Shown: positions 5,518 through 50,913, numbered from the stretch's first letter. The stretch: 64,000 bases of DNA from Escherichia coli (GCA_025336685.1 GCA_025336685.1_4717.1); one strand, 5' to 3'. Made by a program: numbers and translations. Notes: generated by a model not told the origin, from the sequence alone.

Positions 5518-5844
5518 TTAAAGTTTTAACGTATTGACGCCGCTTATAAAGGCGTTGATTTCATTGTCGATGTTACCGGTTTGTTCGATAATCTTCTCCA
5601 CCATCAATCTTGGTTTGTTGTATGCGATACATACAGCATCGGGACCATTTCCATACATGCTAGCGACGTAAATCCGAAGTTCTTTTAAACGATCGAGTAA
5701 CAACTGTGTGACATCCAGAACTTCTTCTGTGGCGGTCCGTGTGTTACAATCGCGTAACTTATGCTCTAACAGTGACGTCGCGGCATCGAGCATGGATGTG
5801 TATTTACGGTAGTTATAGATATCAATCATGGCTGTCTGATTCAT
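5518..5844 (-). CDS. hypothetical protein
   Basis: 108-aa ORF. Confidence 0.45.
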   Translation of the reverse strand: MNQTAMIDIYNYRKYTSMLDAATSLLEHKLRDCNTRTATEEVLDVTQLLLDRLKELRIYVASMYGNGPDAVCIAYNKPRLMVEKIIEQTGNIDNEINAFISGVNTLKL

Positions 5845-5855
5845 ACATACGTTAC

Positions 5856-6515
5856 TTATTTGTCAGGGTCTGGAAAATAGTAATATCGCCAATACAACAT
5901 AGCAATCGCATTTCTTATTCGACGCGCCTCGAAACGACGGCCGAGAAAGGACTTGTAACAAGAATCGCGAACCATAAACAACTCATGGCTCGATATCATC
6001 AGAACCACGATCTCTCTTATATACGAATTGCAGCACTCGATAAACGGATCTGTATCGTACGTATATTTCCTGGCACTACCTATCCCCAACTCTCTATTTA
6101 ACTCACGACAGTTTATCAAAGACTTCGCACAACTGATAAGCCGGACGAAGTCCCGTAAATTGCGGCGAAAGCAAAAATGTCGCCAGGTTCTTAGTGCGTT
6201 ATGTAGCGGACCTAGGATATCTATTCCGATTTTTACAATGTCCGCATCTTTCTTTAATACTTTTTTGTAATACTTCCTATCGTTCGATAATCCATTAAAC
6301 TCATAATTACAATTATATAGCTTATTCGTGCATTCAACCATCTCGTCGATGTATGATAAGAAGTAGTCCACTAATCTAACTGCTTTGTTATCGTCGTACT
6401 GTTCAGTCAGCAGGCGAAGCTGGAGTAGTCGTTTTCGGAAGCGGCGAATACGCCATTGCCACCAAAACCATCGAATATCCCGAATAGGTTTTACTGTCTC
6501 TGTATTAGAGTTCAT
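5856..6515 (-). CDS. hypothetical basic, W/R-rich protein
   Basis: 219-aa ORF in an AT-rich block. Confidence 0.45.
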   Translation of the reverse strand: MNSNTETVKPIRDIRWFWWQWRIRRFRKRLLQLRLLTEQYDDNKAVRLVDYFLSYIDEMVECTNKLYNCNYEFNGLSNDRKYYKKVLKKDADIVKIGIDILGPLHNALRTWRHFCFRRNLRDFVRLISCAKSLINCRELNRELGIGSARKYTYDTDPFIECCNSYIREIVVLMISSHELFMVRDSCYKSFLGRRFEARRIRNAIAMLYWRYYYFPDPDK

Positions 6516-7149
6516 CGTTATTGATACCCTCTATTAGTTGTACCGCAACCTCTCTTTCGGTGTTGTAAAAGAACTTGCGATGGAACCGAACAAGAAGCCT
6601 TTCAAATTTACGTTGCACGATCTTTTTGCGTTCGATATGGCCCAGGGAGAGCAAAGCACCCATGCAACGTACCGCCTGTTCAAGAACTTGTTTCGCGGTA
6701 TCATGATCATCCGGCAACGGTAAATCTTCTTCGTCGTCTTTAGCGATAAGACGTCTAATGATGTTATCGATGCGTATCTCATCGCCGTTAATAAAAGCAC
6801 CTTTCTCCCATTCATCAAACCGTTGATGGATTTGACGTTGTAGGTTGGCCCTATCTTCCGTTAACTCTTTCAACTGGTTTTCTAAGTTGAATACGGTACG
6901 GCGATCTGTTTCAGTGAATCTTTCCGACTCTTTATACCACCAATCATTACGTGCCAGTAAATCGTTGACACGCGATACCATCCGACGACATTCACCAACA
7001 AGTCCATCACCATTCGGTAACTCTGTGCCGAAATAACATTTGTATTTATAACGCGTAACACGGATTAAACGTTTCGCTAGAAAACCTTGTTTTTCCAGTT
7101 TCTTCTTCAGCTGTATGTATTTCTCTTCTTTTGTTTCCATTAATTCCAT
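6505..7149 (-). CDS. hypothetical protein
   Basis: 214-aa ORF, charged/coiled-coil-like composition. Confidence 0.45.
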   Translation of the reverse strand: MELMETKEEKYIQLKKKLEKQGFLAKRLIRVTRYKYKCYFGTELPNGDGLVGECRRMVSRVNDLLARNDWWYKESERFTETDRRTVFNLENQLKELTEDRANLQRQIHQRFDEWEKGAFINGDEIRIDNIIRRLIAKDDEEDLPLPDDHDTAKQVLEQAVRCMGALLSLGHIERKKIVQRKFERLLVRFHRKFFYNTEREVAVQLIEGINNDEL

Positions 7150-7538
7150 GATGTTGTACCTCGTTCAGCAATCAGGAGGGTCGTGGTTGTGCTTTTCACT
7201 AATCTATTAAAGTCTTGATATATCCGCCTGAGGGATGATTTCAAATTGCAATAACGGTTGAAATAAACCTTCAGGTCATCTTTTGTCACCGTCTCCGTAT
7301 TTATTTTCGTAGAAACACCGAGATCGATAAACTCTTTTCTTAATTGGGATAATTCGTCAAGAAGTCGATGATGGCTTAGATAAATAATAGATTTATCGGA
7401 TAACAACTCGCCGGTTATCCGGCTCTGGCGTTCATCGAGATATTGGAGCCGCCATTCAATTCGCTTACGTAATTTATCAAGTAAATCAACAAAAGCGGTA
7501 TAGCTGTTAACGGCTAGGTTAACTTGACTCGCTATCAT
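7140..7538 (-). CDS. hypothetical protein
   Basis: 132-aa ORF. Confidence 0.45.
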   Translation of the reverse strand: MIASQVNLAVNSYTAFVDLLDKLRKRIEWRLQYLDERQSRITGELLSDKSIIYLSHHRLLDELSQLRKEFIDLGVSTKINTETVTKDDLKVYFNRYCNLKSSLRRIYQDFNRLVKSTTTTLLIAERGTTSWN

Positions 7539-7885
7539 TCCACATTCTCCGTTATATGCTTTAAACTGTTACGTATACTTCTCAATCGATGGTTAAATCC
7601 GGAACGATAACATTTCCGTTCAAACCGTGCCGCTCGCGATTTATTCGCCTGATGAAGCTGTTCGTTCACCTGCGACGCTATACGTAAACGCCGCAATAAA
7701 GACCTCAGCCGAACGACAACCAACGGCTGTTCTTTTACCTTCTCTAGTTTGAGTAAATCGTCAATACGAAACTTTATTTCGATAATCTGATTCCTGTTTT
7801 TGCGGTACTGATGAATATACCAACATCGACGAAAATAGGCGATGCTAAACATAGGGTAGGTCCTTTTCAACGCCACCTCCAACAA
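7535..7885 (-). CDS. hypothetical basic protein
   Basis: 116-aa ORF. Confidence 0.4.
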   Translation of the reverse strand: MLEVALKRTYPMFSIAYFRRCWYIHQYRKNRNQIIEIKFRIDDLLKLEKVKEQPLVVVRLRSLLRRLRIASQVNEQLHQANKSRAARFERKCYRSGFNHRLRSIRNSLKHITENVE

Positions 7886-11936: not shown

Positions 11937-12470
11937 CTACTTAACGATCGCGATGATTTTGCCGCTCGCACCGGCGTAATATGCTGTTAATTTACCAGTA
12001 AACAACTCTTGTAAAAGACGATTTACATGACTAACAAAGTTAGGGTTGTCTGATTTTACAAACTCGATATTGCGCGTTTGTTTTATATCACGATCGATTA
12101 AGCGTATTTCCAACAACGCACAAATAAGGCGATCGTCAAGTTTACCACTTGTATCCAACACTTCCCCATACGTCGTAGCACGGACGTCCGCATACATACG
12201 GTCAACATCATCCTTCCCAAAACCACAGGAATAGGCATACGTTGCGATGGTATTACCATTGTCCATCACATAAACGTTACCGCCTGGGTAATCGATAAAT
12301 CGTTGATCCTTATCGCCATGAGCGACGAACTCCAGTGTCGGTCTACCTAGTGAATCACGATTGAATTCGATTGTGGTCAAACGGTCAGGTACCACATGCA
12401 ACGTAAACGGTTTCGCATTGTTACGATCGCTAGTATCACAGTTAGCCATTACTTTTACAATAACACTCAT
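11937..12470 (-). CDS. hypothetical protein, tandem paralog B
   Basis: MSVIVKVMANCDTSDRNNAKP...TIATYAYSCGF; RBS AAGGAA. Confidence 0.5.
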   Translation of the reverse strand: MSVIVKVMANCDTSDRNNAKPFTLHVVPDRLTTIEFNRDSLGRPTLEFVAHGDKDQRFIDYPGGNVYVMDNGNTIATYAYSCGFGKDDVDRMYADVRATTYGEVLDTSGKLDDRLICALLEIRLIDRDIKQTRNIEFVKSDNPNFVSHVNRLLQELFTGKLTAYYAGASGKIIAIVK

Positions 12471-45365: not shown

Positions 45366-46004
45366 TTAACCTAATTTACCACCGGCGATATTGGTGAAAT
45401 CTTCGCCATCAGGAACTTGCAGTAGAATACGTGCCATGTCCCAGTTGGTTAATGTGATTGCTTTATCATCGATACTCAGTTCTGGTAGGTCGAGTTCATG
45501 ATCATCAAACTCGTAGGAAATACTCCACGTTTCATCTGTTTTAGGATCCGTCATCAATACACCGTCTGTCACACGCATGTAGTCCGGATGCAGTTCATTA
45601 CTGAACGTACTGAACGGATCGGTGTAACATTCAGCATACCCCTCGATCTGCTGACGCTGTGCCTTCGTACGTAATTCAGGGCACGCCATGATCAGTTGTC
45701 GAGATATGCCGTTTGCAGCACGGAAGTCTTCCACAGTGTTACATGGCATAACCACATCGTCATGGAAGATGTTCTCCGATTGTCTCAACAGCGTCTTACG
45801 GAGTTCAGCATAGTTTATCTGATTGAATGCATCGAACGTTGCTAACGATTCAGCGTAAAAATGCTTTACGTGTTCGCTTGCGCCACCGAGACTATTCATC
45901 AACTTATGGCCGTACTCCATAAAGCTTTTATCGAGACCGGAGGACATTTCTCCGAACCTCAGTGCACGATAACTGTCTCGTCCACCTGTAAATATTTGCG
46001 CCAT
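45366..46004 (-). CDS. hypothetical protein
   Basis: 212-aa ORF; AGGAGG RBS directly after the upstream stop. Confidence 0.5.
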   Translation of the reverse strand: MAQIFTGGRDSYRALRFGEMSSGLDKSFMEYGHKLMNSLGGASEHVKHFYAESLATFDAFNQINYAELRKTLLRQSENIFHDDVVMPCNTVEDFRAANGISRQLIMACPELRTKAQRQQIEGYAECYTDPFSTFSNELHPDYMRVTDGVLMTDPKTDETWSISYEFDDHELDLPELSIDDKAITLTNWDMARILLQVPDGEDFTNIAGGKLG

Positions 46005-46019
46005 TACAGGCGTCCTCCT

Positions 46020-46257
46020 TTAGCAATGGTTGTTAGTTGCTTCTATTTCATCAAGATACGGTTCTACGTCATCGCCCTCCACGAATTCGTTGAACCAACA
46101 GTCAATGGTAGAAATAACCGGTGACTGGTGTTCACATTTCTTAGATACCTTAAAAGGCACGTTATTATCCATCATACCGAGTTCGGGTCGAAAACGCCCG
46201 AAATGTTTCGCAGTCCAAATGTCTGGGACGATATGGTTGTTCATCGCGTCCCCATCG
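46020..46257 (-). CDS. RNA polymerase beta-prime-like N-terminal subunit, exon 2
   Basis: Starts with codons for DGDAMNNHIVPDIW, the continuation of NADF|DGD; ends at stop 46020. Confidence 0.75.
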
Positions 46258-47669
46258 CTTCAGTTTAATTTGGTCGAACGTATTCCAATTTCAATCCATG
46301 CCAATCACCGCCTTTACTAATAGCGGTACTTATCGTAGTCGGATGCACTTTATGTTCTTCAGCAAGGGCGAATCTATCAGGATAGACTTTATGTGTACCA
46401 TCCTCAAACACCACCTTTACTGGGAACCTTTGTAATCCACCAGTTTTTGGTCTAGGCTCTTTAGGAATATATTTACATTCGTTCACATCGCCAGGATAAT
46501 TCCTTGTCCACCATGCTTTCCAACCGTTTCTGGAAAACATCTTATCTCCATGACATAAGCTATGACTTAATGTCGCATAGCTCACTCCCACCATTGTTGC
46601 CGCCATTACGGTACTTTCCATGTGATACTTGTCTCCATCGGGCGATATTAAAACCAACCCGCCGTAAATAACATACGACTTACCGGCATCTTCGGATGTG
46701 AAACCGACAAATTCCATTCCGTGGGTAGCCGCATCGTAATATTTCATCAACGGCCATTGTCGTGTAGTACGGAACCATTTTGAAATCTGGGTGTGTGGGA
46801 TACCGTAACACTTAGCCGCATCGCGCATACTGTAATGTTCGGTTATCTCGCCAGTTCTCAAATCCTTTATCCATACTGTTTTAGCTTTCCAGTTCAAGCC
46901 CGTACGATAGGCATGGTACGTATTTTGGGATTGACTCGTCCATTCAAGATTATCCAAGCGGTTGTTATCTTTAACTCCGTCAAGATGGTTACCTACTAAC
47001 ATTGATCCCTCAGGCAGCATAGGTTTTTCACGAAAGGTGGATAAAACAACATGATGAGCTGCTATATCTCTACCTTCATGTCTGACCCTTACATATCCTA
47101 ATACGTTAGTTTTTCCTACTTCCTCTCCAGTATAGGCATCTATAATGACACCCTCCACAGAAGCGGCAAGTCCGGGATAATCTTTACAATGGTAAAATCC
47201 TGGGAATTTTGTCTCTCTAAGTTTCATCTTCTCTCCGCTATCGGCCAACAGAGAGAAAACGTTCCTCGGAGGCCGACGTTTTCAAATTAAACTACGTTAT
47301 CGACTATATCTTCATCCTCATTGCGAGGAGTCTCCCGTTTGGGTCTGTGTTTAACAGAGCCTACTCTACTCGACATCGCGTCTTTCGATAGTCTGTGAGC
47401 ACACATCTTAACGAACATTCGTGGACTCCTAAACAGGTGAACATTCTTGTTAAGATGCTTCGCTGCGGGTTATTCCCGTCCTACCTCTTTTACCATACCC
47501 AGTTCATTACGCTGGCCCTCATCTATGTCGCCACGATGAGTTGGTGTGTAGTCCGATTACAGAAACTTCCCGTCAATTAGAGAGTTTTAACTATGTTCCT
47601 GTTACCAGAAACCCGACTCCGATGATATCAATAAATCAACGTAAGTTATTGATTTAATTGAAGAAACTG
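46258..47669 (-). other. group I intron (1412 nt) in the RNAP beta-prime-like gene
   Basis: 5' splice after U (GCCGACUU|CAG); candidate IGS GAGUCGG pairs with exon CCGACUU including a U.G wobble; P AAUUGACGGGAAG, Q AAUAACCCGCAGC, R GCUCACAGACUAUCGAAAG, S GAAGAUAUAGUCGA all in the first ~400 nt; 3' end ...CUGAAG with terminal G. Confidence 0.8.
46265..47227 (-). CDS. HNH homing endonuclease encoded in the 3' part of the intron
   Basis: HHVVLSTFREKPMLPEGSMLVGNHLDGVKDNNRLDNLEW (HNH core); track start 47248 is TTG, ATG 47227 has GGAGAG RBS. Confidence 0.8.
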   Translation of the reverse strand: MKLRETKFPGFYHCKDYPGLAASVEGVIIDAYTGEEVGKTNVLGYVRVRHEGRDIAAHHVVLSTFREKPMLPEGSMLVGNHLDGVKDNNRLDNLEWTSQSQNTYHAYRTGLNWKAKTVWIKDLRTGEITEHYSMRDAAKCYGIPHTQISKWFRTTRQWPLMKYYDAATHGMEFVGFTSEDAGKSYVIYGGLVLISPDGDKYHMESTVMAATMVGVSYATLSHSLCHGDKMFSRNGWKAWWTRNYPGDVNECKYIPKEPRPKTGGLQRFPVKVVFEDGTHKVYPDRFALAEEHKVHPTTISTAISKGGDWHGLKLEYVRPN

Positions 47670-48925
47670 AAGTCGGCATTGTATCCCTTAAGGATCATCA
47701 CGCTTAACCCGATGGTGTTATCCTGCGGATCGCGTTTAACCTTGGTGATTTCAAGACATTGGTTACTGCTTCGGTCAAGTGATGGGTTTCGAACAAAACC
47801 ACACACAATCCCATCGAACGGTGTATCGGCAATAAGCTCATCGTGTAGCTCGCTCATCATCGGGTGGTAATTACGGACATGTTCCGCAACGAACGCACGT
47901 GCTGCTCTTGGTGAATAACCACGATGGAATAACTTGGATTGGATGTGTTCTTTATTGGTTAATGTAAATGGCGCGTATGGGAAATGCAGATGATAATAAC
48001 GATGGTTCGCTGTTATCGAACTGATTACGGTACGCGTGGTGAATGGGTGTAATGTACCTAATATGTTTTTACGCGTGATACCTTTCTTCTTACCGATGAA
48101 CTCATCGAAAATCGCCGAGTGGTACTGCAGCAGCTTCAGTTGTACTTTCGCCATCCAGTTTTCTTTCTTTCTGGCGCTCAAAGGTGTTGTTGGGTGATAG
48201 ATACTATTCAATGTGCCGATAGCATCGATCGCACCTTCCATTTTGCTATCTGCATAACGGCCGGTCGGTGTATTTTCGATAACGAACATCATGGCCGCAG
48301 GAAAGCTGATATACTGGCTGAAGAACTTATCACGATGGATACGGATGAATTCTCGTAGCGTGTCAACTTTCTCTGTGTTCTTCGGTCCACGTAACGTAGG
48401 TCCTTTATACAAGATCTCCATGATGCGATCGAAGTTCTGTATAAAGCTATTTACGCCACGTCGTATCCCGAATACATCGAATTGCTGCTCCAGATAGTTC
48501 TTGAGTTCGATGGGTCGTTTTACATTTGGACGGTAACTGGCATCAATGAGCCACGTCATCGTTTCGAAGCTTTTGATATTCAACTCGCTTGCCAGCACGA
48601 GATGGACCAACGGGTTAATGAACGCATCGATTCCTTCAGGGACACGCGCCCAGACCGTCGAACGAATCTCCTGTTCTGCTGGGTAGGTCACAACCGTTTT
48701 ACAGTTTGGACACACCGTGCCGAGCAGCTCACCACGATTGTAAAAACCGCATCCACATTGCGGTGTGATATCCAACGTATCGCTGGAGTAAACACGGGTG
48801 ATAAAACTGTTTAATTTCTTCTTCTCTTCGACGACTTTTGTATCGTAATCGTTCAACAAAATCGGCGTAAAGGGAAGTTCTGCGAGCTGTCTATCGAAAC
48901 TCACGATATCGAGCATGATGGCCAT
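47670..48925 (-). CDS. RNA polymerase beta-prime-like N-terminal subunit, exon 1
   Basis: Zinc-ribbon CGCGFYNRGELLGTVCPNCK; C-terminal ...IGLSVMILKGYNADF parallels bacterial ...LHPLVCAAYNADF; the ORF reads through into the intron as SFFN-stop. Confidence 0.8.
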
Positions 48926-48967
48926 GGGACATCTCCTACAAATGAAAAAGAACGTTAGGACGTATAA

Positions 48968-48991
48968 GGGAGGGAGGTTGCCCTCCCTCCC
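48968..48991 (-). terminator. hairpin GGGAGGGAGG-TTGC-CCTCCCTCCC upstream of the beta-prime-like gene
   Basis: 10-bp perfect stem. Confidence 0.5.
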
Positions 48992-49017
48992 GTCAGATTA
49001 CATCGAACGTTCTTCCA

Positions 49018-50913
49018 TTAGAACAGGTTGAATGCCCCACCCATGTTGTTACCGCCAACATTCGGACGATCGCTACGTGCATAGATGTTGCCGGAGATGT
49101 TACCCAGACCACGAGCACGTGCTGCTGTGTTACCACGAACAGCGGTACCTGCCAGATGCTGGATGTTCTCAGGACGGATGGTGAAGCCAGCTTCGGCAGC
49201 CGCTTCAATCAATGCCGCAAGCGCATTCGGTTCGAAATCGTAACGCATTGCCCAACCGGTTTGTTCCCAGCTACCAGACAGAACGCGATCGATGATTTCG
49301 TGACGAGCAACAACACGCTGAGACATCGACATATCGGTACGGTCGAAGCTGTCTTCCCAAGCTTCTACGGTATCCGGGTTAGTGATGTTCATCATGTACA
49401 GATCGTCCATATCACGAATATCGTGACGGTGGCCATCCTGGTGGTTGTAGTGACCCAGCGGGATACGGTTACCGGTAGCGTACACTAACGGCTGGCCGTA
49501 TTGATATTTCTTGCTGAAGCAACCCAGGGTGGTATCATCGAATGCACGATAGAGTGCTTTATAGCCTTCGGAGATTTCTTGAACTTTACCGTCAACGTTG
49601 CCCGTAAAGATCTTCTCAGCTGCAGGGATCATACGCAGCAACCAGCTATATTCACCTTCTTCCGGTACATCGATAGAAATCAGCAGAGACGGATACAGTA
49701 CCTGTTGCAGGAACTTGTAAATCTGCTCGTTGGTTTGAGTAGACAGATCCAGCGGTGCGGTAACTTCCGGATCCAGTACCATTGCCAGAGCACCCGGGTT
49801 ATGAGGACCGATGCCACGAGCAGCGTTGCTGATTAAAGACTGTGCCCACGCCATACCGCTGTTCAGCGTAGCGATGGTACCAATCAGACCTAACACGAAA
49901 GTGTTCGGAGTGAACGCATCCAGCTCCAGCGGGTAAGCGCTGGTCATCACGTAACGCGGCTGGTATTGTACAGTCGGCGGTACCGGATAACCGTTAACCA
50001 GAACAGGACCTTGGTTGAAGGTCGGGTTCTGCGGGCTGTAGGTCAGGTCAATGTAACCAGTGGTTGCGACCAGGCGCTGTTGACTATCGTAATCGCTCAT
50101 CGCTTGACGGATACGGTTAGAGATAGTTACAGTGATGTCAGAACGTACTGGGTTACCGACGATATCGCTGTCCTGCATACCGCTGGTGTTGTACTGAACG
50201 CTGCTGATCGGCTGATCGCTTGCCATCATGCCCAGGTTGAACTGCGGCAGGCCCAGTTTATCGCCGAGACGGATTTCGATCGCGGTTTGGATTGCGTTAT
50301 CTGCAGCAGACAACAGGGTGGTTGCCAGATGTGCAGATTCAGCGGTGATTTCATTGGTCACCACAGCCAGACCGGCGATACGAACAGTACCATTAGCCTT
50401 ACCACCAATAGCCGCATACATTGCCGCCATGACTTCGTTGATGAACGTGCCGTTCAGGTTATCAACCCAGGTACGTGGTACCAGAATGTTACCATGCGGA
50501 CCTTGTTCTTCACGACGCGGCAGCGGAGCCAAACCGGCAACCAGCGGAAGCACATAACCGAAGAAGTGGTTATGGTCACCAACTTTTGCACCGCTCATAA
50601 CAACCAGGGTCGGATACGGTACACTGTACTGGTTAGGATCGACGGTCACCATGATGAAGTCGTCTTTGAATCCTTTATCTTCCAGTTCTTTTTCCATCAG
50701 ACGGCGGAGATTCAGTACCTGCTCGGAGCCAGTATTACGGCTAATACGACGGCTCAGTGTACGGTTGATCGTACGCATCGTATGAGTTACTTTAGGCTGG
50801 CCAGCAAAATCTGCAGCGGTTTCCAGCGCCTCATCAGCACGTTGTGCGGTGCGGGTTTCAGCTGCACGAATTTCTACATTATCGTTACCGTTATTACGTA
50901 CGTCTAAGCCCAT
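49018..50913 (-). CDS. 631-aa protein, candidate nuclear-shell protein (chimallin-like); function inferred only from size, promoter and position
   Basis: Long ORF with AGAGGAA RBS, promoter-like motif upstream, immediately upstream of the beta-prime-like gene; I recall a similar arrangement in phiKZ. Confidence 0.45.
   Translation of the reverse strand: MGLDVRNNGNDNVEIRAAETRTAQRADEALETAADFAGQPKVTHTMRTINRTLSRRISRNTGSEQVLNLRRLMEKELEDKGFKDDFIMVTVDPNQYSVPYPTLVVMSGAKVGDHNHFFGYVLPLVAGLAPLPRREEQGPHGNILVPRTWVDNLNGTFINEVMAAMYAAIGGKANGTVRIAGLAVVTNEITAESAHLATTLLSAADNAIQTAIEIRLGDKLGLPQFNLGMMASDQPISSVQYNTSGMQDSDIVGNPVRSDITVTISNRIRQAMSDYDSQQRLVATTGYIDLTYSPQNPTFNQGPVLVNGYPVPPTVQYQPRYVMTSAYPLELDAFTPNTFVLGLIGTIATLNSGMAWAQSLISNAARGIGPHNPGALAMVLDPEVTAPLDLSTQTNEQIYKFLQQVLYPSLLISIDVPEEGEYSWLLRMIPAAEKIFTGNVDGKVQEISEGYKALYRAFDDTTLGCFSKKYQYGQPLVYATGNRIPLGHYNHQDGHRHDIRDMDDLYMMNITNPDTVEAWEDSFDRTDMSMSQRVVARHEIIDRVLSGSWEQTGWAMRYDFEPNALAALIEAAAEAGFTIRPENIQHLAGTAVRGNTAARARGLGNISGNIYARSDRPNVGGNNMGGAFNLF

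Follow-up and report, generated by a model that had tools for sequence, protein, structure and literature searches.

The interrupted polymerase gene and its locus

We studied positions 46020 to 48925 of a 64,000-nucleotide (nt) stretch of DNA from an Escherichia coli assembly (GCA_025336685.1); the whole stretch is called the window in the following. The region holds a gene for a subunit of a multisubunit RNA polymerase, and within the codons of its NADFDGD motif this gene is interrupted by what is very probably a group I intron with the junction 47670/46257 (a slash marks splice junctions and insertion sites throughout). All genes under discussion are encoded on the minus strand. Respective features are:

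47670..48925, minus strand: exon 1 of the non-virion RNA polymerase beta-prime N-terminal subunit gene, ending ...AAT GCC GAC TT
46258..47669, minus strand: predicted group I intron, 1412 nt, first base C (47669), last base G (46258, the omega-G)
46020..46257, minus strand: exon 2, C GAT GGG GAC GCG ATG ... stop, encoding DGDAMNNH... to the C-terminus
46265..47227, minus strand: putative homing endonuclease gene, 320 amino acids (aa), HNH_3 / I-HmuI-like, in the loop of intron helix P9
49018..50913, minus strand: chimallin (phage nuclear shell protein) homologue, 631 aa, counterpart of the shell protein of phage Goslar

An earlier reading of the bare sequence (the sequence-only reading) had described a 423-codon open reading frame (ORF) at 47654..48925 that ends in NADF followed by SFFN and a stop. 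Coordinates and end were verified, i.e., the product ends in ...ILKGYNADFSFFN, and the unspliced reading of exon 1 runs on into SFFN and the stop codon 47656..47654. It had also claimed that joining 47670/46257 restores NADF-DGD. This holds: the joined exons form a single 497-aa ORF containing ...GYNADFDGDAMNNHIVPD..., which aligns with the phiKZ gp55 chain (PDB 7OGP chain A; E 9e-75, residues 21-476) straight through the junction and the NADFDGD motif. The exon 2 product itself aligns with the C-terminal 75 residues of phiKZ gp55. Furthermore, the spliced protein matches PHROG 2987 'RNA polymerase beta subunit' (E 6e-133, residues 1-474), and a Pfam RNA_pol_Rpb1_2 match (36.9 bits) spans the junction (residues 371-428 of the spliced protein).

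Because the spliced product matches PHROG 2987, RNA_pol_Rpb1_2 and PDB 7OGP chain A, we assign the interrupted gene on sequence grounds as the orthologue of phiKZ gp55, i.e., the N-terminal fragment of the non-virion RNA polymerase beta-prime subunit. The protein is homologous to gp55 over its full length and has the NADFDGD motif as well as a Cys4 ribbon at its N-terminus. Its gene is syntenic with chimallin: it lies directly downstream of chimallin in the same order as phiKZ gene 54 and gene 55, and the two are neighbours not only in the window but also in Goslar, in phiKZ itself and in six further loci, metagenomic or assembled. The gp55-type gene is known to encode the catalytic subunit that transcribes the late genes.

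The window region is 96.9% identical in nucleotides to Escherichia phage vB_EcoM_Goslar, which identifies its source, as judged from sequence, as a Goslar-like nucleus-forming jumbo phage. Among the 1494 exon nt we count 50 differences between window and Goslar, only 2 of which change amino acids, which argues for strong purifying selection on the exons of the host gene. A scan of 45900..49100 for sigma-70 promoters and terminators gave nothing above shuffled expectation; the scan does not model phage polymerases.

Predicted splice junction and intron-less alleles

On the minus strand, the second U of the Phe codon stands at 47670, the sequence ...ACUGAAG ends with the G at 46258, and exon 2 starts at 46257 with C GAT GGG GAC GCG ATG AAC AAC CAT. 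The 1412-nt intervening sequence thus ends in G, as had been claimed from the sequence alone. Since 1412 mod 3 is 2, the frame changes between the exons. The predicted junction in spliced RNA is ...AAUGCCGACUU/CGAUGGGGAC... (also written ...AATGCCGACTT/CGATGGGGAC...), which is a 1412-nt deletion relative to the DNA, and the predicted peptide of the joined protein is GYNADFDGDAMNNHIVPDIWTAK. An intein is excluded by the frame change together with the in-frame stop 13 nt into the insert.

The alignment with uninterrupted homologues that had been proposed as a check supports the junction. A homologue is found in 307 phage records, and in 257 of these a single match spans 80% or more of the spliced protein; among the 60 matches listed, 52 run unbroken across residues 419/420. 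The contig L005 (ENA) carries, in this order, chimallin, an uninterrupted 496-aa gene and a 212-aa gene, and holds no intron. The same gene order is found in L012 (GCA_034286695.1, a 255,607-nt contig), but with an intron present at the window's site. L005 and L012 are 95.6% identical upstream and 92.9% identical downstream of the insertion site, and their alignment breaks exactly at GCTGACTT/TGATGG (GACTT/TGATGG), i.e., at the same dinucleotide as in the window. Hence intron-less alleles exist, and excision gives a gp55-like full-length protein.

Predicted structure of the ribozyme core

The sequence-only reading had suggested a covariance-model scan for a group I fold. Here, the Rfam model RF00028 is matched completely with 50.3 bits, which reaches the gathering score of 50. 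The E-value is 6.3e-11 if only the region is considered and 8.1e-10 for all 64 kb of the window, in which Rfam has no further match. The parts of the core are:

47281..47660, minus strand: Rfam RF00028 (Intron_gpI) match, model positions 1-253, complete
47670..47676, minus strand: P1 exon strand CCGACUU, its last U (47670) forming the U.G wobble at the 5' splice site
47613..47624, minus strand: internal guide, CAUCG (47624..47620, P10) and then GAGUCGG (47619..47613, P1)
47624..47620 with exon 2 CGAUG 46257..46253, minus strand: P10, CAUCG with CGAUG, adjoining P1
47633..47655, minus strand: 'P1a' hairpin in the P1 loop, AAAUCAA-UAACUUACG-UUGAUUU
47595..47612, minus strand: P2 hairpin, GUUUCUG-GUAA-CAGGAAC, with a GNRA loop
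47584..47580 with GGGAG 47336..47332, minus strand: P3
47575..47569 with 47469..47464, minus strand: P4
47565..47473, minus strand: P5 and extension hairpins
47463..47399, minus strand: P6/P6a/P6b; P6b is cleanly deleted in L012
CAGACUA 47395..47389 with UAGUCG 47306..47301, minus strand: P7
47388..47342, minus strand: 47-nt two-hairpin insert, candidate P7.1/P7.2, between the P7 5' strand and the P3 3' strand
47329..47315, minus strand: P8
47283..47294, minus strand: P9 5' strand UAGUUUAAUUUG, pairing across about 1 kb with 46272..46261
46261..46272, minus strand: P9 3' strand CAAAUUAAACUG, then AAG with the final G 46258 as omega-G

All helices of the group I core P3-P8 form, including the P3/P7 pseudoknot and the P7 guanosine-site helix, and the four strings that had been named as P, Q, R and S elements fall on the respective conserved positions of RF00028. 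Equally confirmed is the proposed pairing of the guide GAGUCGG (47619..47613) with the exon end CCGACUU (47676..47670) through a U.G wobble; it also covaries (see below). With its 12/12 pairs, P9 closes a loop in which the endonuclease gene lies. When only the core is folded by minimum free energy (MFE) without pseudoknots, P1a, P2, P3, P4, P5, P6a/b, P7.2 and P8 are recovered. The P5 register is ambiguous by one base and the P3 register is not unambiguous from the Rfam alignment, such that the registers with the best support from L012 were chosen.

In L012, P1a is missing and the P1 loop is short and conventional, while the P2 loop reads GCAA. The second hairpin of the 47-nt insert has its closing pairs conserved in L012; the first is replaced there by a differently sequenced hairpin, as read by eye. 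Hairpins P7.1 and P7.2 between the P7 5' and P3 3' strands are a mark of subgroup IA in the classification of Michel and Westhof, and the two-hairpin insert of the window tentatively suggests this subgroup.

The core wholly contains a 43-codon ORF (47287..47418, minus strand) that reaches from P6 to P9. The assembly L014 lists this ORF as a gene; it is almost certainly spurious.

Covariation across homologous copies

We compared five copies of the intron: the window, Goslar (L001), the ORF-less copies L006 (Logan SRR5130533) and L008 (IMG/VR 3300045988), and the distant copy L012, whose core is about 66% identical. Since raw MAFFT alignments misplaced the 3' ends of the ORF-less copies and the 5' exon of L012, pair counts are given for edited composite alignments (N padding, P1 loop removed; final version A4) and not for raw loci.

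On A4, 99.1% of the 424 cells of the named structure are paired, compared to 37-41% when partners are slid. Doubly compensated pairs number 20, in contrast to 0-3 in the slid controls, and none of 500 shuffles reaches any of the observed measures. They include 2 pairs in P1, 1 in P10, 3 in P2, 1 in P7, 2 in P8 and 9 in P9; compensated pairs are also present in P5. For P1, 7/7 pairs form in all five copies with an invariant U.G at the splice site, while one position is found as C-G, A-U and U-A and another as C-G and U-A. The change in P10 is A-U in the window and L012 versus G-C in Goslar, L006 and L008; the three P2 changes are relative to L012, as is that of the P7 closing pair (C-G versus A-U). 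P9 occurs as three unrelated sequences in the same place, each perfectly self-complementary: that of the window, ACGUGCACCGAC with GUCGGUGCACGU in Goslar, and CAACUGAG with CUCAGUUG in L012. One P6a position is unpaired in three of the five copies.

A distant blastn search with the core among 50,697 phage records gave only Goslar and a 108-nt match of 71% identity in a different intron of PhiPA3. When IMG/VR was scanned for exact patterns, Goslar itself and one allele with three introns were the only matches.

The endonuclease in the P9 loop

An HNH endonuclease ORF had been placed in the 3' part of the intron, and we can substantiate this. The 320-aa product matches Pfam HNH_3 with 25.7 bits (cut-off 24.8) and PHROG 59 'HNH endonuclease' with E 5e-29. 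Its HNH motif NHLDGVKDNNRLDNLEW aligns with DHKDGNKDNNLSTNLRW of I-HmuI (PDB 1U3E), and His81 within ...VGNHLDGVKDNNRLDNLEW... is the predicted catalytic residue. The protein is 23% identical to PhiPA3 gp210 over 85% of its length, and an identical 320-aa protein is called in the independent assembly L014. The endonuclease of Goslar, which aligns over the whole length, has a NUMOD1 domain above its cut-off. The start codon is most likely ATG 47227, with a Shine-Dalgarno sequence GGAG 8 nt upstream, rather than TTG 47248.

This start is covered by a further feature:

47225..47261, minus strand: 16-bp hairpin that buries the Shine-Dalgarno sequence (GGAGAG) and AUG of the endonuclease

The hairpin has a free energy of -29.4 kcal/mol (z -3.3), and 0/200 shuffles are as stable. 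In phage T4, translation starts of intron ORFs are sequestered in RNA structure, and by analogy the hairpin may restrain translation of the endonuclease in the precursor. HNH enzymes of the I-HmuI type are nickases. From I-HmuI and gp210 we infer a putative activity as well, i.e., nicking of the intron-less allele near the insertion site.

Signs of mobility and modularity

The Goslar record (NC_048170 / MK327938) holds an Intron_gpI feature (169269..169645) in the orthologous place next to the HNH endonuclease HOV27_gp186 / Goslar_00186. Only the ribozyme core is annotated as intron there and each exon is listed as a gene of its own; no intron is mentioned in the Goslar genome paper. Window and Goslar share the gene, the site NADF/DGD and the internal guide sequence, and exon 1, the core (11 differences in 373 nt) and exon 2 are each about 97% identical. 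The order of parts is the same as well: the core is followed by the endonuclease, whose loop is closed by a 12-bp P9, and AAG leads up to the splice site. In contrast, the 3' part from just after P7 to the omega-G (1039 nt in the window, 1067 nt in Goslar) is unalignable as DNA, the endonucleases are only 29% identical over their full length, and the P9 strands are unrelated. Furthermore, Goslar has an extra ORF-less insert of 355 nt located 13 nt downstream, to which we return below.

L006 and L008 carry the same core as the window without P9 and without ORF (1853..2222 in L006). That is, they read GAUAAC-AG up to the splice site where the window reads GAUAAC-GU, P9 with the ORF, and GA-AG. 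These comparisons suggest that the endonuclease and the P9 stem are exchangeable on a shared ribozyme.

Compared to L014, the intron shows 10 differences in 1412 nt (99.3% identity) and exon 2 shows 1/238, whereas the flanks (chimallin, exon 1 and downstream genes) show 256/4043 (93.7% identity; Fisher p 8e-23). The endonuclease ORF differs in 6 of 963 nt and encodes an identical protein. Chimallin, of which L014 covers 1210 nt, is 93% identical and thus more diverged than the intron. The pattern is consistent with recent homing with one-sided co-conversion of the downstream exon, and the window's version of the intron would thereby have been transferred recently between diverged phages. For a mobile intron, both presence/absence polymorphism (L005 versus L012) and an intron closer than its flanks (L014) are found.

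Viewed along the locus, intron and exon 2 together (46020..47669) are 99.3% identical to L014 and its flanking genes 92-96%; the divergence jumps at two places, close to the 5' splice site on the upstream side and close to where exon 2 ends on the downstream side. Just upstream of the P1 bases, four consecutive codons carry synonymous third-position changes (47690, 47687, 47684 and 47681): they read CTT AAG GGA TAC in the window and CTC AAA GGT TAT in both Goslar and L014, and the 108 nt preceding this cluster hold zero differences from Goslar. We considered that the seven synonymous differences from Goslar near the site reflect differing targets of the two endonucleases. This was rejected for the upstream four, because L014 has the window's endonuclease but Goslar's upstream flank. 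The window-specific cluster could be a short conversion patch or a change of the target site.

Comparison with known systems

The gene 55 intron of phiKZ with gp56 was predicted by Mesyanzhinov (2002) and treated by Ceyssens (2014), as cited in PMC10914365 and PMC11512511. The phiKZ gene (exons PHIKZ055 and PHIKZ056.1) is the orthologous gene by chimallin and likewise has an HNH-bearing group I intron in its NADFDGD codons (Rfam 75.6 bits). In contrast to the window, the insertion is 8 nt upstream (N/ADFDGD), gp56 is encoded on the 5' side of the core, in the P1 loop as judged by eye, and not in P9, and the ribozyme has no detectable DNA similarity to that of the window. For phiKZ (L004 11170..12541), we observed by eye that a guide GUUGGG (about 12209..12214) pairs with exon CCUAAU, such that the ORF would sit in the P1 loop, i.e., the opposite architecture to the window. 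The gp55 protein from infected cells is reported with 56 kDa (PMC4666361). By our own arithmetic, this fits the joined 508-aa product and not the 421-codon first exon.

The endonuclease has an experimentally studied homologue in PhiPA3 gp210 (Birkholz et al. 2024, Science; PMC11620839), whose intron lies in gp211/209, the gene for the beta subunit of the virion RNA polymerase. For gp210, nicking of the intron-less target, target specificity and a competitive advantage are experimentally established. In both cases a chimallivirus group I intron with an I-HmuI-like HNH enzyme interrupts a multisubunit RNA polymerase gene where it encodes conserved aspartates. The differences are that gp210 resides at another site in the beta subunit of the virion polymerase, and that the window's element is known from sequence only.

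Introns of T4 (td, nrdB, nrdD/sunY) and of the DNA polymerase genes of SPO1/SP82 (I-HmuI/I-HmuII) are spliced and homing. They have in common with the window the insertion into catalytic codons of an essential nucleic-acid enzyme, an ORF looped out from a peripheral helix and, if the two-hairpin insert is read as P7.1/P7.2, a core of subgroup IA type; in contrast, their host genes are different and the sequence relationship is at family level only. These group I introns are reviewed in PMC12908238. Our full-text literature search for NADFDGD together with intron gave nothing on phages.

Since the Goslar orthologue is annotated and phiKZ gene 55 is known to be intron-split, the element is of a known kind. 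New here are the endonuclease/P9 module unlike that of Goslar, the ORF-less copies, the intron that is closer than its flanks to L014, and the apparent multi-intron hot spot described below.

Interpretation and alternative explanations

In the reading we prefer, the locus would hold a single gene whose two exons are separated by a mobile group I intron. Its pre-mRNA would self-splice by the standard two-step transesterification initiated by guanosine. As splicing is needed for an intact gene, polymerase production would depend on it, while unspliced RNA would yield a 423-aa fragment without the three Mg-binding aspartates. The 320-aa HNH endonuclease of I-HmuI / PhiPA3 gp210 type, expressed from the P9 loop, would nick a co-infecting relative's intron-less allele close to where the intron inserts, and repair off the intron-bearing genome would copy the intron with adjacent exon sequence. 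Endonuclease translation would probably be kept low in the precursor by the hairpin over ribosome-binding site and AUG.

Several points weigh against this reading. Self-splicing is predicted from sequence features, and homing activity is suggested by analogy. The Rfam score is barely at threshold (50.3 versus 50), and Goslar's 97%-identical copy is below it (46.9). The P1 loop is unusually long (43 nt, containing a hairpin). Furthermore, the structure was drawn from the same sequences on which it was tested, four of which are 95-97% identical, such that most power comes from L012 and P9. The C-terminal DNA-binding modules of the endonuclease stay below threshold in Pfam (I-HmuI_NUMOD-like 13.1 bits, HTH families about 14 bits). 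Finally, a long-read transcriptome of phiKZ contains no spliced reads for its three predicted introns (PMC10914365).

Alternatively, the gene could be split at the protein level, i.e., a 423-aa (NADFSFFN) and a 74-aa (MNNH...) fragment would assemble non-covalently, with an unrelated free-standing endonuclease between them. Beta and beta-prime subunits of jumbo phages do naturally occur in several polypeptides, but the known beta-prime split site is located after the DPBB domain and not at NADF/DGD (PMC7598289). Gene callers and the Goslar record list the pieces separately, and an ATG is available at 46244. However, DGD is encoded upstream of this ATG, in frame with exon 2 and conserved, and a protein split inside the Mg-binding loop would remove all three aspartates from both products. 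The 'gene' for Goslar's second piece even begins at an ATG within the further insert that is missing from the window. Given that homologues are mostly uninterrupted and that exactly between the pieces there is an entire group I core whose P1 and P10 covary, we consider a protein-level split very unlikely.

Somewhat less improbable, though still unlikely, is a decayed relic, i.e., an immobile and tolerated element that splices poorly or depends on cofactors and whose endonuclease is inactive. Every core helix is intact and compensated, and the endonuclease ORF is of full length with an intact HNH motif, which does not suggest decay, even if the Rfam score is borderline and the P1 loop unusual. 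The published role of the gp55-type subunit in late transcription implies that the host gene must be expressed, which counts against a relic, as does the strong purifying selection evident from 2 non-synonymous among 50 exon differences. ORF-less and P9-less copies in relatives indicate that the element loses or lacks parts, and one dataset shows no splicing of the phiKZ introns (PMC10914365). Against this, a near-identical ORF (6/963 nt) between flanks that differ by about 6% from L014 argues for recent transfer rather than decay. An assembly or annotation artefact, such as a chimeric join or a contaminating mobile element, has nothing specific in its favour and next to no probability in our view: the same arrangement is found in the independent assembly L014, whose flanks are 95% identical, and, with a different endonuclease, in the genome of the Goslar isolate, and the database homologue P0001, which at first looked chimeric, owes its odd tail to read-through into a further real intron.

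For annotation, the group I reading means that the locus is one 497-aa catalytic polymerase subunit in two exons. If splicing is required, an RNA-level step is added to the infection programme, given that the polymerase serves middle and late genes.

A probable insertion hot spot and tandem introns

The NADFDGD codons of gp55 homologues in chimalliviruses (L009, L010, L011, L003 and the proteins P0025-P0065 in addition to the copies above) look like an insertion hot spot. Insertion positions are:

before the AT of the Tyr codon: L006, L008
after N: phiKZ, probably KpGz_1
after NA: L010
after NAD: four metagenomic proteins
after NADF: window
after NADFDG: L009, L010
after NADFDGD: L011, P0060
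after NADFDGDA: Goslar, L006, L008

Rfam intron scores are 87.8 bits for L009, 54.8 and 68.3 bits for the tandem pair of L010, and 40.2 bits for L003. The two strong tandem introns of L010 are arranged around a DFDG mini-exon.

Three tandem ORF-less group I introns are found in L006 (1467..2590) and L008 (reverse strand), which are independent Goslar-like assemblies. For L006, they score 31, 47 and 16.7 bits in Rfam and are separated by the 13-nt mini-exons ATAATGCAGATTT and CGACGGGGATGCT. Each mini-exon of L006/L008 must have a double role, pairing in P10 of one intron and in P1 of the following one. In the middle position stands the window's intron minus P9 and endonuclease.

The second intervening sequence of Goslar is ORF-less and 355 nt long (L001 (NC_048170) 5785..6139), follows a 13-nt mini-exon C GAC GGT GAC GCT, and is precisely absent from the window (site 46245/46244). 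It holds P/Q/R/S-like strings with a P7 of GAAUA and UAUUC and gives a weak, partial Rfam match (16.7 bits, E 0.33); its 3' end resembles the phiKZ gene 55 intron. With both inserts removed, Goslar encodes a 497-aa protein that differs in two residues from that of the window. Since the RefSeq start ATG of HOV27_gp185 lies inside the second insert, the public annotation of this gene is probably wrong. That is, Goslar, a model nucleus-forming phage, needs the same correction as the window, with three exons in our reading.

Taken jointly, these observations allow a wider reading that we put forward tentatively and regard as somewhat doubtful. The about 27 nt of the (Y)NADFDGDA codons would be a battleground, with at least seven insertion positions across lineages and up to three tandem introns separated by 13-nt mini-exons. 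The endonuclease/P9 cassette would move apart from the ribozyme and would have spread recently, such that window, Goslar, L006 and L008 would show one ribozyme at different stages of gaining, exchanging or losing an endonuclease. By analogy to PhiPA3 gp210, the nickase may possibly act as a weapon that disables the late-transcription polymerase gene of intron-less co-infecting relatives.

The allelic series around this locus is unusually informative. The related loci form a natural series that shares one ribozyme: they lack the intron, carry it without an ORF, carry it with one or the other of two unrelated endonuclease cassettes, or hold one to three introns in tandem. The series could open experiments on how endonucleases colonise introns in a tractable E. 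coli phage, and could be used to test nickase-mediated competition between nucleus-forming phages.

The chimallivirus-like contig L010 carries, two genes downstream of its polymerase gene, a 410-aa IS605-type OrfB/TnpB (Cas12f1-like_TNB) gene at 6519..7751.

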